Positions 9,751 through 28,436 of a DNA stretch of 31,302 nucleotides are shown piece after piece; position 1 is the stretch's first letter; each line of letters opens with the position of its first letter. Where the stretch lies: NCBI GenBank assembly GCA_031416315.1, contig JANOTL010000183.1, positions 1-31,302 of the forward strand, given 5' to 3'. The position numbers were made by a program, and so were the translations under genes. The stretch is from Pseudomonadota bacterium (lineage in GTDB: Bacteria; Bdellovibrionota_B; Oligoflexia; Oligoflexales; CAIYRB01). A model generated the notes under the pieces. The model was not told the origin of the DNA, made no database searches, and saw nothing but the letters and a program-made list of their open reading frames with translations.

Positions 9751-9797
9751 TGTGGACAAATTTTCCACAAGAAGCGCGCGGACTTCCATTAACCACA
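9751..9797. promoter_or_regulatory. DnaA boxes upstream of dnaA
   Basis: TGTGGACAA (9751-9759) and TTTTCCACA (9761-9769) as an inverted pair; TTAACCACA (9789-9797). Confidence 0.8.
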
Positions 9798-23467: not shown

Positions 23468-23476
23468 TGTGGATAA
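23468..23476 (-). promoter_or_regulatory. Perfect DnaA box (TTATCCACA)
   Basis: TGTGGATAA on plus strand, intergenic, 38 nt upstream of the ATG at 23515. Confidence 0.65.
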
Positions 23477-23514
23477 GTTGTTGATGTGAGTGTGAATTGA
23501 GCGGGAGTGGAACA

Positions 23515-26061
23515 ATGCGGCACCTTTTCAAAGCGTCGATTTCCCTGACGGTCGTCGGGGTCCTGAACACCTTGAGCAGCACGGCTTACGCCGGACCTCG
23601 ATGCGTGGCGGACCTCTCTAGGGTCGACCCCGCCTTCTGCGTTAACGACGGACAATCGCTCAATTACAGCTGGTCCGCGAACGACACGGCCTTCGATTTG
23701 AGCGCCAAGCTCTGTCTGGTCGACAACTCGGGCGTCGGCAATCGCCGCGACCTGGTTTTCGCACTCGATCGGTCCCAGTCCATCTGGGGCGCTGACGCGA
23801 TCAACAAGAAGCTCGGAGCCGATCAAGTCGCGATGACGAAAGCGATGCTCGCCACACTGCGCGACGAGGCGAAAGCTAACCCGGACAAAGCTCCCAAAGT
23901 CGGGCTGATGGCCTTTTCGGTCGATCCCGCCTGTCAGGAATGGGCCGGCGAGCCGATCGTGATCGAGAAAACGTTCCCGTGCCGCTTCGTCAAAGCTGCG
24001 ACGCTCGTCGATGACGCGCATTACGCCAAGCTCGAGGCCTTCCTTGCGGAGACCGACGGCAAATACGCTCAGGGCGGGCTTGCGCAGACGAGCGACGTCG
24101 AAATCGTGGCGAGCCTCCTCGCCGACGATCAATTCGCGCTGGCAAGCAGCAAGAAAGCCGGACTGGTCCTCATGTCGGACGGACGCAGCTACAAAGGGGC
24201 GGCGAGCGACCAATATGCCTATCTCCGCTCGGGCGCCTACGCCAAAGCACTGGCAGACGGCGTAACAGCGTTTTCGAAGCCGGCGCTCAAAGGTTACGAA
24301 ATGATTTTCGCGCTCGCGCCGATCAAGGCGCCGGCCTTTGACGAGACGCATGCAGACGGACTCAGCGTTATGTGCAAACTCGCGGGCGCCGAGCCCGTCG
24401 ACTGCACGGCGCCGGTGGACTTCTCGACGCCGATGACGTGGCCCTCGAACAAACTCGACGGCCGCTCGTTCGCTGAGGCGCTTACGGTCGCCACCGGCAC
24501 GCCGGCCGACCGCGTCTTCGAACTGAAGGACAAGGCGAGCTTTGACCTTGCGCTGGACAAGCTGCGCATCACCGAAACCGGCGCCGCGCCGATCACGGGC
24601 GTAAGCTACTCAGTCGCGGGCGGCGCCCCGCAGCCGGCGAATCTCGAAGGCGTGCGCTTTACGATCCCGGCCTTGCCAACGGGGCAGGTTCTGCCCGTCG
24701 AGCTCCTCGTGCGCGTCAACACCCAAGACGTCAAGATTCCGCTCAACGTCATGACCGAGCTGTCGGCGAACGCCGGCGTCGAGCTGGCCGACAAAGAAAT
24801 GTTCTGCCTCGCGGGCGAGCAGATCGCGCCGGCGATCGAGAAACCGAAGCTTTCCCTAGACGATCTCCAGGGCGGTTCAGGAAGCTGCGGCGTCGCCGCG
24901 AGCGCGTCGGGCGCGTCGAAAGCGCCTTTTCTCGGGCTCTTTCTGCTACTGCCGGCGATCTTCGCCTTGGCTCGCCGTCAGCGCGCGCAGCTCGCAGCTG
25001 TCGCCGTCGCGGGGCTCTTCGCCGCCGAAGGCGCCAGTGCTGACGAAGCCAAAGGCCTGAACGCCATGCATCACCGCCCGGTGCTCGACGGCGCGGGTAA
25101 CACCGAGAAGGCCTCCGGCTTGGGCGCCGGGCAGCTGAAAGCCGGCCTTTTCCTGGACTACGCCAACGACGCGGTCGAGCTCTCCGGCAAGAAGGGCAAG
25201 CGCCTGGATTCAGTGGTCGATGATTTGGCCTCGATGCATGCGGTCTTCGGCCTCGGCTTGCACAAGAAGCTCAGTTTGGGCCTCGATCTACCTTACGTGC
25301 ACAAGACCGACATCGACCGCAGAATGGCGGGCGACAGCGACGACGGCCAGAAGCTCGGCCGGCCGAGCGACGCGGCGGCGCAAATCAAATTCACGGTCAC
25401 GGAAAGCCCGACGTTTGCGTTCGCGCTGATCCCGACGGCAACGATCCCCATGGGCGAGCCCGAGAATCTGACAGGAGACGGCACGCCGAACTACGGCGCC
25501 TTGCTCGCCTTCTCGGGCAGCGAAGGACTCTTGAACTGGGGCGCGAGCGTCGGCTACTTGCACCGTCAGGAAGCTTTGGTCCTCGAAGACGACCGGGCGC
25601 GGACCGTGAAGGTGCGCGGCCAGTTCCCGATCTCCATGGGCCTCGATTATCAGGTCGCGCGCCTCGTGCGGGTCGGCGGGAACTTGCAGTTCAAGCCGAC
25701 GTCGGGCGAGCGGATCGACTTCTCGAAAGCGAATCCGGCCGAATGGCAGGCGATCGGGAAGCTCAGGTTCCTGCCGACGCTCGAGACGACGCTCGGCTTC
25801 GGGACCGGCATCGGTAAAGGCTACGGCTCACCGGACTACCGCGTGTTTGCGGGTGTGAGCTGGGTTCCCGGCGCGAGCGTCCGGACCGCGGATGCGCCGA
25901 GGGCGGCGCAGGTGAAGGCGAAGGCGGAAGTGAAGCCGACGCCGGCGAAGGTCGCGCCCGTGGCGGCGAAGCCCGTCGTGGCGAAGTTGGCGCCGGTCAA
26001 GGCGAGCGGCAGCAAGGCGGCCGTGGCGAAGGCCGCGCCGAAAGCGGCAAAGAAGAAGTAG
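23515..26061 (+). CDS. Exported multi-module protein: vWA domain, internal sorting/TM segment, second signal peptide, outer-membrane beta-barrel, Lys/Ala-rich tail
   Basis: Signal peptide ending TAYA; MIDAS DRSQS (23767-23781) and LVLMSDG; GGSGSCG..TM..RRQR (24871-24984); amphipathic beta-strands ending GYGSPDYRVFAGVSW; SD GGGAG. Confidence 0.8.
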   Translation: MRHLFKASISLTVVGVLNTLSSTAYAGPRCVADLSRVDPAFCVNDGQSLNYSWSANDTAFDLSAKLCLVDNSGVGNRRDLVFALDRSQSIWGADAINKKLGADQVAMTKAMLATLRDEAKANPDKAPKVGLMAFSVDPACQEWAGEPIVIEKTFPCRFVKAATLVDDAHYAKLEAFLAETDGKYAQGGLAQTSDVEIVASLLADDQFALASSKKAGLVLMSDGRSYKGAASDQYAYLRSGAYAKALADGVTAFSKPALKGYEMIFALAPIKAPAFDETHADGLSVMCKLAGAEPVDCTAPVDFSTPMTWPSNKLDGRSFAEALTVATGTPADRVFELKDKASFDLALDKLRITETGAAPITGVSYSVAGGAPQPANLEGVRFTIPALPTGQVLPVELLVRVNTQDVKIPLNVMTELSANAGVELADKEMFCLAGEQIAPAIEKPKLSLDDLQGGSGSCGVAASASGASKAPFLGLFLLLPAIFALARRQRAQLAAVAVAGLFAAEGASADEAKGLNAMHHRPVLDGAGNTEKASGLGAGQLKAGLFLDYANDAVELSGKKGKRLDSVVDDLASMHAVFGLGLHKKLSLGLDLPYVHKTDIDRRMAGDSDDGQKLGRPSDAAAQIKFTVTESPTFAFALIPTATIPMGEPENLTGDGTPNYGALLAFSGSEGLLNWGASVGYLHRQEALVLEDDRARTVKVRGQFPISMGLDYQVARLVRVGGNLQFKPTSGERIDFSKANPAEWQAIGKLRFLPTLETTLGFGTGIGKGYGSPDYRVFAGVSWVPGASVRTADAPRAAQVKAKAEVKPTPAKVAPVAAKPVVAKLAPVKASGSKAAVAKAAPKAAKKK

Positions 26062-26142: not shown

Positions 26143-27249
26143 TTAGAAGGCGAACAGGACCCCGAGCCCGAGCTCGAGCCCGAGTTTGCCTTTTTTGTGC
26201 GCCAGTTGCGTTTGCAGGTCTTTGCCGGCGTCGGCGACGCCGCGCGATTCCTCGGCGTCGAGGGCACCTTCGAAGGCCTTGCCAAATTCCGCCACCGGGA
26301 TGCCGATGGTGAGCCCGGCGCGGGCGCCGACCAGCTTCACGAAGTTGATCTCACCGTTGGCGCCCAGACGAAGCGAGAGCACCGCGAGCTTGGAGCTGGC
26401 TTCCGTCAACTTCACGTCCGCGACGCCCGTGTCGTCTTTTTTCAGCGCCGTGATCGAAACCGTCGAGAAATCCAGGTCGAGACCGGCGAGGAAGTTGAAG
26501 TTCAGGAGCGGGCCGACGGGGAGTCTCAGATACTGGAAGTCGGTGGAGAGGCCGAAAGCGGACGCCTGCTGCTCGACCGTCACGTACGGGTTGTTGCGCT
26601 TCGGCTGGTAATCGGCCTCGATCTGCGAGGGCGTGAAGCTTCGGTAGCGCAGGCCGGGGACGATGGCGAAACGGGTGCCGAGCGGGATCGCGGCCTCGAC
26701 GTTGAGGCCAAAGTACGTGCTCTTGATCTCCTCGTCTTGCGACCAAAGGGTCGCAGGGGTCGCGCTCGTGGGCGCCTTGTAAGCTAGCTTCTGATAGGTC
26801 GAAGGCGTCATCGGGGCCGCGCCGTAGAAGCCCACGACTCTGAAAGGGTTCTTCTTTTTCTTCTTGAGCGGCTTGGTTTTGATGACGACTTTTTCGCCTT
26901 TGGCCGGCTTGTCGCTGCCCGCGGCCTCACTGCTGCCGAAGCCCGCGTCGCTCCCCTCGCCCGCGCTCTTACGCGCGATCATCCCGACCTCGATGGCGTC
27001 GAGGTCCTTCTTGGTCTCGACCTTCACCTGGATCAGCGTGTCCTTCGCCTTGGTGACGGCGCCGCAGCCGACGTCGGCGCCGCCTTCCTTCGCGAAGCAG
27101 ACCTTGTCGCCTTTCGCAAAGATCTCCACCTCTTCGATCTCAACGTCGACCATCTTCTTCTTCGCGTTGATCTCTTTGACGACGCCGGCATGGGCCGGAG
27201 CCGAGGTCAGGAGCGCAACGAGCACGAGCCAGCCGGAGTGCCGCATCAT
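26143..27249 (-). CDS. Putative outer-membrane beta-barrel protein with N-terminal soluble beta domain
   Basis: Signal peptide MMRHSGWLVLVALLTSAPAHA; alternating-hydrophobic strands; terminal beta-signal GLELGLGVLFAF; ATGA overlap with upstream gene. Confidence 0.78.
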   Translation of the reverse strand: MMRHSGWLVLVALLTSAPAHAGVVKEINAKKKMVDVEIEEVEIFAKGDKVCFAKEGGADVGCGAVTKAKDTLIQVKVETKKDLDAIEVGMIARKSAGEGSDAGFGSSEAAGSDKPAKGEKVVIKTKPLKKKKKNPFRVVGFYGAAPMTPSTYQKLAYKAPTSATPATLWSQDEEIKSTYFGLNVEAAIPLGTRFAIVPGLRYRSFTPSQIEADYQPKRNNPYVTVEQQASAFGLSTDFQYLRLPVGPLLNFNFLAGLDLDFSTVSITALKKDDTGVADVKLTEASSKLAVLSLRLGANGEINFVKLVGARAGLTIGIPVAEFGKAFEGALDAEESRGVADAGKDLQTQLAHKKGKLGLELGLGVLFAF

Positions 27250-28436
27250 TTCTCGATCCGTCCTGAACGCCAATCCGTCATGCTCACGAGCCAGCCTTCC
27301 TTGGCCCAGAGCTGGTGCGTCGTGAGCTCGGCGAGCAACACGTGCTTGCCGTCTTCCAGGCCCTGCAGGAGCTTCGAGTCGATCTCGGCCGTGCGTTTCT
27401 CCGCCGGGAACACGCACTGAATTGCGTCAGCATCCTCGGCGCGGCCGATCAGGACGACCAAGTAGGACGGGTCGGGCAACGCGCCGGCGTACGTCCACGA
27501 GATCTTGAGCGGCTTGGCCGGGTCGATCTTCAGGGCTTCCGGGGAAGTTGCGAGCTGTGGCGCTTCGAACGCCTGGACCTCGGTCGACTCCATTTCCATG
27601 TTCTGGATCTTCACCACCGGGCGGGCGACGACCATGAAGTCCTTGGCGCGCAGTTGGTACAGCAGCGTCCACTTATCGACGCCCTCGTTGACCGAGCCAT
27701 AGGCGAGCGTCAGGCGGTCCTTCGCCTCCGGGTGGACGCTGGCAGCTCCGGTGGCGAAGTCCTTGGACGCCAGGTTCTGAATGGCGACGTCGGCGGCGGC
27801 GCCTCGGAAGGGCAGGATGTCCTTGCTGAACCCGGCCCGGCAGCCCGGCGTGCGGCGCAGGCGGGACCGGATGCCTTCGGTGTCTAGGCTCTCGGCCAGT
27901 TGATGATGGTGGACCTCGGCGGCGCGCAAGGGGACGTCGAAGCGAGCGACAAGGAGGTCATTCAGCTTGCCGTCATCGACGGGATCTTTGCTCGGGTCGA
28001 TGACAGCACTGGGGCTCGGGGCTTCCTTGACGATCACGGACTCCGCGTTCTCCTTCTTGCCCGTCGGCACCCAAACGCGGATGACGACGTAGTAGAGGGC
28101 GTCGGTCCGCAGGCCGTCGATCTTCTCGGTGATCTCGCTGCGACCGGCGGCGCCTTCGCCGCAAGCCTGCGTTTTCGGAGTCGCTTTGGTCGGCTCGGTC
28201 TTCCCGTCCTGGGAGTACACGTCGAGCTCGCAGAGCGTCTTTTTCTTGGTCTTGAAGGTCAGGCGCGCGGCGTCACCGTCGCCGATCCGGTCGAGGAAGA
28301 TCGACGAGCGGTCGATGAGCCGCTCCGTCGAGGCCGTCTTCTTGCCGTCGCTCTTCTTCTTTGGCTTGAGAAAGCAGCCGCTCGCCGCCACGACGAGGGT
28401 CAGAAGCGCGACGAGCGCACGCGGCTTGGGCGTCAT
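27246..28436 (-). CDS. Hypothetical lipoprotein with probable Ig/Fn3-like domains
   Basis: Lipobox LVVAASG-C after basic N-terminus and hydrophobic stretch; IDGLRTDALYYVVIRV resembles the Fn3 'gL.p.t.Y.v.v' motif. Confidence 0.75.
   Translation of the reverse strand: MTPKPRALVALLTLVVAASGCFLKPKKKSDGKKTASTERLIDRSSIFLDRIGDGDAARLTFKTKKKTLCELDVYSQDGKTEPTKATPKTQACGEGAAGRSEITEKIDGLRTDALYYVVIRVWVPTGKKENAESVIVKEAPSPSAVIDPSKDPVDDGKLNDLLVARFDVPLRAAEVHHHQLAESLDTEGIRSRLRRTPGCRAGFSKDILPFRGAAADVAIQNLASKDFATGAASVHPEAKDRLTLAYGSVNEGVDKWTLLYQLRAKDFMVVARPVVKIQNMEMESTEVQAFEAPQLATSPEALKIDPAKPLKISWTYAGALPDPSYLVVLIGRAEDADAIQCVFPAEKRTAEIDSKLLQGLEDGKHVLLAELTTHQLWAKEGWLVSMTDWRSGRIEK

Follow-up and report, generated by a model that had tools for sequence, protein, structure and literature searches.

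We analyzed a 31,302-nt stretch of DNA from an Oligoflexia bacterium (contig JANOTL010000183.1 of assembly GCA_031416315.1; hereafter, the window) and found that one of its genes, at positions 23515–26061 of the forward strand, encodes a probable surface protein of von Willebrand factor A (vWA)-like type and an outer-membrane β-barrel in a single frame, joined by a cysteine-containing sorting tag, a short basic loop and a second signal peptide. The fusion, its conservation in relatives and the placement of both signals as in separate proteins are observed directly. These features suggest that the gene is probably a natural, conserved fusion of the TraA–TraB type, the precursor of which would be cut into two envelope proteins. 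The parts of the gene are as follows.

23515..23592, + strand: signal peptide 1, residues 1–26, ending in AYA (read from the sequence; relatives have the same layout)
23593..24885, + strand: passenger, a divergent vWA-like domain with eight conserved Cys (ESM Atlas, Pfam and alignment)
23767..23781, + strand: DRSQS, residues 85–89, resembling a metal ion-dependent adhesion site (MIDAS); partly conserved
24175-24183, + strand: MIDAS-like SDG, residues 221–223; Asp222 in 20/25 rows
24868..24891, + strand: tag signature QGGSGSCG; Cys invariant in 27/27 rows
24886-24888, + strand: Cys458, candidate lipidation and cleavage site, in the C-G-V form of the genome's terminal tags
24925..24972, + strand: helix 1, the membrane segment of the tag, residues 471–486, with invariant Pro480; contains an in-frame TTG at 24967
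24973..24984, + strand: basic loop RRQR, residues 487–490, the putative cytoplasmic turn of a helical hairpin; at least two Lys/Arg in 25/27 rows
24985..25041, + strand: second signal peptide, hydrophobic helix 2 plus ASA (residues 507–509), at the position of the signal peptides of stand-alone barrels
25042..25872, + strand: outer-membrane β-barrel, TraB/COG4313/FapF-like by profile matches, with no OmpA domain after it
25873..26061, + strand: Ala/Lys/Pro-rich basic tail and stop codon; variable in length and missing in some relatives

The frame is uninterrupted over its 848 codons (no internal stop), with the tag and the barrel in the same frame. The first-pass annotation, which a model had made from the sequence, had proposed one open reading frame (ORF) with a signal peptide, an eight-Cys N-terminal part and a Cys-free C-terminal part, as well as the order of sorting tag, second signal peptide and barrel, and all of these were found where it had placed them. 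Gly454, Cys458 and Pro480 are invariant in all 27 aligned rows, which share 16–52% identity with the query. Within the closer family, Pro480 is kept in 25/25 rows, and position –1 of the second signal is Ala in 22/25. At least two Lys/Arg residues separate the helices in 25 of the 27 rows, an AxA-like motif stands just before the barrel start in 21, and the distance from ASA to the conserved barrel start is only about six residues. The suggestion that RRQR acts both as the stop-transfer of the first protein and as the n-region of the second signal peptide fits 25 of the 27 rows, and is thus not universal.

To see how the fusion is distributed, we searched 131 genomes of the class for the N-terminal part. 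Seven of these match, and the junction reads through in all seven, so that the expected fused layout of homologues was confirmed; two of them (G028 and G034) have contig ends that truncate the gene elsewhere. All 28 proteins that match a profile of the N-terminal part (the query included) also read through, at 25–52% identity, and twelve homologues at 38–50% identity share the layout, although the search that yielded these twelve admitted only proteins of fused length. A metagenome scan returned two loci, one fused and the other cut by a contig end. Short homologues consisting of the N-terminal part alone were sought among 8000 candidates and none was found, which is weak evidence because the selection was word-based. 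The order of genes around the fusion is conserved in relatives. The same gene slot in genome G048 is occupied by a stand-alone barrel gene that encodes a signal peptide of its own (L008:1250–2364) and has a frameshift near 1434, about 60 codons in, which may be an assembly error or a broken gene.

A profile of the junction plus the barrel found 4173 cluster representatives, and we examined 159 proteins (13 from the first homologue search and 146 new ones from this profile). The barrel stands alone behind an ordinary signal peptide in 78 and is fused in 79, with two fragments; since the junction was part of the search profile, fused forms are overrepresented and the ratio is not a frequency. 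Among the 79 fused proteins, 69 fit a Gly..Cys tag pattern, four carry a CFI-box-like tag, and the other six have a Cys tag recognized by eye. The barrel of the stand-alone proteins starts at a median residue of 29.5, and their signals end where the second signal of the fusions ends. The passengers are mutually unrelated in the 42 proteins scanned (TSP3, FG-GAP, Calx-beta, Big, DUF4215, PA14 and vWA), and an OmpA match is listed for 26 of these. After four short rows were dropped, a FastTree phylogeny of 155 barrels (77 of them fused) gave at least 24 changes between the fused and the stand-alone state, computed with no shuffle control and with gain and loss not separable. The fused relatives, together with signals placed as in separate proteins, support the idea of a polyprotein put forward in the first-pass annotation. 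A 2635-aa frame of another genome (G043:C42; L025/L073) contains Asp-rich repeats, the same joint, a barrel and an OmpA-like tail; its joint has no clear Arg cluster.

A second gene of the same genome (G000:C118:7738–9777, minus strand; L048, L057) serves as a natural control. Its product is a trypsin-like lipoprotein that continues, past the same tag and a basic loop, into a second signal peptide and a domain that is not a barrel. Of 12 family genomes, seven have its counterpart as a single frame and two (G029 and G033) as a pair of ORFs; in the remaining three it is cut or weak. The tag of the G029 gene ends at a stop codon, and the gene that follows has its own Shine-Dalgarno sequence and ATG and encodes an ordinary signal peptide. 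Of the 50 homologues compared, the chain terminates with the tag in 30 and continues beyond it in 18; two show no tag. This family shows how the joint arises, and in the genomes with split genes each of the two signals is part of a protein of its own. Four fused protease homologues (P0168, P0169, P0190 and P0206) show a joint that, by eye, has apparently collapsed to one helix; such a joint would alter the topology of the downstream domain.

The assignment of the C-terminal part as an outer-membrane barrel, also made in the first-pass annotation, is supported by homology. The whole 848-aa protein has no match in Pfam, and a whole-protein NCBIfam scan gave one weak match, to TraB over residues 540–798. 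The TraB model (NF033763) reached E = 1.6e-4 and 19.8 bits on the query, compared with a cut-off of 700 bits, and was matched in 19 of the 27 rows; PF13557 was matched in 18 of 35 barrel relatives. A barrel-only profile searched against PDB found FapF (E = 1.4e-4), with a match spanning about 80 of 302 profile positions, and FapF was the only solved relative of the barrel found. A PDB search with a profile of the close family returned nothing, and one with alignment A4 returned only OmpA-type domains, which came from other rows (best 60 of 84 matches); the query itself has no OmpA domain at its C-terminus but a basic tail instead. A strand-alternation score differed slightly between the two halves of the protein (0.83 versus 0.64) and was not used as proof. 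From these profile matches, the C-terminal part is a TraB/COG4313/FapF-like outer-membrane barrel, and by analogy to FapF it would have 12 strands. Alignment with hhalign gave 99.9% to the TraB part of P0129. That protein comprises PA14, a Cys repeat, the tag, a signal peptide and a TraB-like barrel in one chain, and is an apparent natural TraA–TraB fusion.

Homology likewise favors the vWA assignment proposed for the N-terminal part. ESM Atlas placed VWA clusters first (0.91, 132 shared features), which we used as a lead only, and the Pfam VWA models (PF00092/PF13519) gave E = 0.045 and 14.4 bits, compared with a gathering score of 23.8. PF00092 was matched by 4 of the 27 rows at E ≤ 0.05; among these, P0035 and P0041 are fusions at a greater distance, and the alignment of P0035 covers the junction and barrel only. 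A weak MtsD match was found in 2 of 27 rows, and models of TraA, PA14 and Cys repeats matched none of the 27. The Cys residues of the passenger lie at positions 30, 42, 67, 140, 156, 287, 297 and 431, followed by Cys458 in the tag and none downstream, and all nine are kept in 25/25 family rows (alignment A3). The eight passenger Cys probably form four disulfides; their number being even, Cys458 would be left free. The MIDAS reported in the first-pass annotation is present in the query as DxSxS plus an Asp, whereas its Thr could not be placed, and its conservation is partial: across the 25 rows, the Asp and the first Ser of DRSQS are kept in 25/25, the second Ser in 12/25 and Asp222 in 20/25, so that about half of the family has a degenerate site.

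We then asked whether the tag occurs elsewhere in the genome. A profile built from the junction found terminal tags on about seven proteins of genome G000 (C39, C117, C223, C169, C16, C211 and C153). Four of them are of one kind (the two scanned ones are M4-like), one is a subtilase, and two were named matrixin-like by eye. Five of the seven beat the best control from reversed ORFs (13.5 bits); the tags of C211, C169 and C118 score within the range of that control and were accepted by eye. The form of the tag in this lineage is C-G-V, a helix with Pro and a basic cluster, with one Cys. The MYXO-CTERM model TIGR03901 gave 27.2 bits on the subtilase tail, compared with 17.3 at the fusion junction. 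These terminal Cys tags, in a genome with no sortase over the cut-offs of the Mrt models, possibly belong to an unnamed sorting system. A type II secretion system is present, since GspD exceeds its cut-off in the genome and a GspF-like gene lies on the same contig. The three barrel paralogues that bear OmpA have no tag-bearing neighbour among ORFs of at least 230 aa, as judged by eye. Of the two tag types named in the first-pass annotation, the likeness to MYXO-CTERM stood in part: the tag shares the invariant Cys, the helix and the basic cluster, but it scores under the cut-off, has Pro in the helix and lies far from the C-terminus (358 residues follow). GlyGly-CTERM (TIGR03501) was rejected, as the model had no match at the junction at E ≤ 10.

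The mechanism that we propose follows the rules of Sec export and signal peptidase I and the MYXO-CTERM pathway (PMC11980579). Signal peptide 1 would direct Sec export of the vWA-like part of the 89-kDa precursor. Helix 1 would stop transfer, leaving RRQR in the cytoplasm, and helix 2 would restart export, so that the barrel sequence enters the periplasm. The precursor would be cut at the second signal peptide: signal peptidase I would very probably cleave at ASA|D (509/510), releasing a 339-aa barrel of about 36 kDa for the β-barrel assembly machinery (BAM). Cys458 would rather probably be lipidated, with the tag cut by a CPBP intramembrane protease of the genome, as for ordinary terminal tags, to give a lipid-anchored vWA protein of about 46 kDa (50 kDa would be expected for an N-terminal part that is not processed in this way). 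The type II secretion system could then carry this protein to the surface, where the vWA part might be an adhesin or receptor beside the barrel, supplied 1:1, a step for which we hold slightly less than even confidence. As a whole, this model of two proteases and surface display is the one that we consider reasonably probable from the sequences.

Several observations weigh against this model. An AxA-like motif, by the pattern used, is missing in 6 of the 27 rows, fewer than two basic loop residues are present in 2 of 27, and the basic loop is absent in one relative (P0022/L006). The tag scored 17.3 bits with TIGR03901, or 16.6 on the excised junction, under the cut-off of 20, and Pro480 lies in its helix whereas the MYXO-CTERM helix is without Pro. 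No myxosortase (NF040593) was found in the genome, NF040914 exceeded its cut-off in 0 of 31 related genomes, and four CPBP proteases of the genome all fall under the Mrt cut-offs; since the genome is 93% complete, the missing myxosortase is not proven absent. No TraA homologue was found, in a search whose control also gave no signal, so that nothing links the fusion to outer-membrane exchange. With the MIDAS degenerate in about half of the family, metal-dependent adhesion is unsure. Four stand-alone barrels (P0033, P0037, P0043 and P0072) fall in or beside the clade of vWA fusions, so that split pairs of vWA protein and barrel may exist. The inflation of the fused share described above belongs here as well.

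Some of these points would favor cleavage by signal peptidase I alone, which would leave a vWA part of about 50 kDa anchored by the hairpin in the inner membrane and facing the periplasm, with a tag that is either a relic or inaccessible to the sortase. No protease exceeds the myxosortase cut-off, the tag is below that of TIGR03901, and the hairpin might hinder an intramembrane protease. However, the invariance of Cys458, Gly454 and Pro480 is what would be expected of a tag that is still read, the same signature terminates secreted proteases of this genome, and evidence for tags working mid-protein is cited in PMC11980579; we consider this explanation unlikely. It is quite improbable that the barrel arises mainly from the internal TTG at 24967 (MARRQRAQLAAV...), that is, from two overlapping genes with no stop codon between them. 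This TTG lies two codons before RRQR and would yield a well-formed signal peptide, and some genes of the window likewise pair weakly with the Shine-Dalgarno partner at their listed start. Its own pairing energy is nevertheless –2.1 kcal/mol, rank 34 of 46 among in-frame start-like codons; such codons are placed differently in seven relatives (only past the basic loop in L032 and only within helix 1 in L031); Met is absent from the junction in 8 of 22 family rows and scattered in the others; and the upstream product would read through regardless. The first-pass annotation had ranked this start as the weaker option, which the poor pairing and the want of a conserved counterpart bear out.

The same annotation had also proposed that the barrel could display or export the adhesin. 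Its use as a dedicated exporter of the N-terminal part, FapF-like or two-partner-like within one gene, might be suggested by FapF, which has 12 strands and secretes unfolded amyloid subunits, and by the repeated fusion to surface-type passengers. This proposal is weak and, in our view, very improbable: the passenger is probably folded, with four disulfides and a lipid anchor, and would be too large for a 12-stranded pore; most tag proteins of the genome have no fused barrel; and MYXO-CTERM proteins use the type II secretion system, for which GspD is present here. TraA and TraB act 1:1, localize to the outer membrane independently of each other, and support adhesion even when the OmpA domain is missing (PMC12045341); this fits a role of the barrel as a partner rather than an exporter. 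The protein might instead remain uncleaved and span the envelope as a tether, its hairpin sitting in the inner membrane and its barrel in the outer one. Although it is never split in 7/7 genomes and a few junctions have no clear AxA motif or basic loop, Ala at –1 is kept in 22/25 rows, and the roughly six residues between ASA and the barrel would be too few to span the periplasm; this makes a tether exceedingly improbable. Finally, an assembly artefact could have removed a stop codon, and independent read support is thin. Read mapping, which had been suggested as a check, is weak when taken alone: run X1 agrees with the stretch at every position, but this DNA may have come from that very run, and run X2 covers only 24594–24889. 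The same read-through in six other genomes, in all 28 proteins of the N-terminal profile and at one metagenome locus refutes an assembly slip, to which we assign virtually no probability. We retain the model of a precursor cut into two envelope proteins.

Upstream of the fusion gene lie gyrB, gyrA, gatA, gatB, a β-lactamase-like gene and an FAD oxidoreductase, and dnaA is about 12 kb away. Two further features precede the start codon.

23503..23507, + strand: Shine-Dalgarno-like GGGAG of the main ATG, pairing energy –7.7 kcal/mol
23468..23476, - strand: perfect DnaA-box consensus, 39–47 nt 5' of the start codon, the sole perfect box in the window

Perfect matches to the DnaA-box consensus number 11 genome-wide, and the one in the window may mark a DnaA-regulated promoter or an origin-linked site. 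Upstream perfect boxes also occur in other loci: L031 has one at an equal distance, L075 has two, and L008 has one together with three near matches. A perfect box thus precedes the gene in four of eight loci of this gene slot, with none in L033, L034, L003 and L006. Three boxes with one mismatch lie at 9751–9797, just 5' of dnaA, a probable replication origin. A sigma-70-like promoter was searched for at the fusion gene and not found. Downstream, at 26143–28436 on the minus strand, two convergent genes of no clear Pfam family are conserved next to the fusion as well as next to the barrel-only gene; one resembles a lipoprotein, and the other may end in a barrel.

The first-pass annotation had claimed an undescribed secretion class, which is wrong. 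MXAN_5598 of Myxococcus xanthus, an adhesin with an internal MYXO-CTERM, an outer-membrane barrel and OmpA, has been likened to a fused TraA–TraB (PMC11980579), and Guo, Haft and Wall (mBio 2025; PMC11980579) propose, as an untested proposal, that its N-terminal part is processed and surface-anchored. Because this layout is already in print, no new class is claimed here. Compared by description, the two proteins share a signal peptide, a surface-type N-terminal part, an internal Cys tag and an outer-membrane barrel in one ORF. The present protein differs in its vWA-like passenger, in having no OmpA domain and no recognized myxosortase, and in its host, which appears not to be a myxobacterium. 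The second signal peptide is named here and is not mentioned for MXAN_5598 in the available text of PMC11980579; a literature search, with supplements and subscription journals outside its scope, found no paper on such a signal peptide or its cleavage, and none on CFI-box-CTERM. The DnaA box upstream of the gene recalls a printed remark that MXAN_5598 sits among cell-division genes.

What is new is an Oligoflexia lineage with its own Pro-containing Cys tag, no named sortase, a vWA passenger and no OmpA, together with a fused/split control gene whose partner is not a barrel. More tentatively, the Cys tag, basic turn and second signal peptide may constitute a general, recurrent polyprotein joint between a tag-bearing gene and a downstream exported partner, barrel or not, which would be read by signal peptidase I and by a CPBP sortase, so far undescribed, for a Pro-containing Cys tag that is probably specific to Oligoflexia. 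It would supply a lipid-anchored receptor and a barrel 1:1, and the family would represent an OmpA-less, TraAB-like contact device, its gene maybe under DnaA control. If the model of a precursor cut in two holds, many such genes (77 fused rows in one tree) would be misannotated as single OmpA-family or hypothetical proteins, 'C-terminal' tags would function mid-chain in nature, and TraB-like barrels would be general partners of Cys-tagged surface proteins. With 848 aa, the protein is a compact test case, and the lineage further provides a natural fused/split control in the second gene and a Cys-tag system with a sortase yet to be named.

Descriptions of bacterial precursors that are cleaved at an internal signal peptide are rare. 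Bradyrhizobium FbcH, the precursor of cytochromes b and c1, is split at an internal signal-peptide-like site; it differs from the present case in that its products are respiratory proteins of the inner membrane and it has neither a sorting tag nor a barrel. In type Va autotransporters, the passenger is joined to the barrel without inner-membrane helices; we rejected this type, as the junction has two hydrophobic helices and the autotransporter models of Pfam gave no match. The barrel is related by sequence profile to FapF/COG4313 (PF13557), but FapF itself stands alone, being a 12-stranded barrel that forms trimers, exports amyloid and contains a coiled coil and a plug (PMC5557850). Like the MYXO-, JDVT-, Synerg- and CGP-CTERM/Mrt systems, the tag combines a Cys motif, a helix and a basic cluster, with several clients and CPBP proteases in the genome; in contrast to those Cys-type systems, it combines an invariant Pro with a single Cys, and every Mrt model stays below its cut-off. 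MYXO-CTERM has been described as confined to Myxococcota and Bradymonadales, with a helix free of Pro and of charged residues near the C-terminus (Haft, bioRxiv 10.1101/2023.06.07.544157), and its proteins depend on the type II secretion system, with MrtX cleaving TraA (PMC11980579). As in TraA–TraB (NF033759 and NF033763), a tag-bearing surface protein is encoded directly before a homologous barrel. However, traA and traB are two overlapping genes (PMC3325183, PMC6372800), TraA contains PA14 and Cys repeats and TraB contains TSP3 and OmpA, none of which is found here. By analogy, the fusion would work like a fused TraA–TraB while being a member of neither TraA, TraB nor the strict MYXO-CTERM family.

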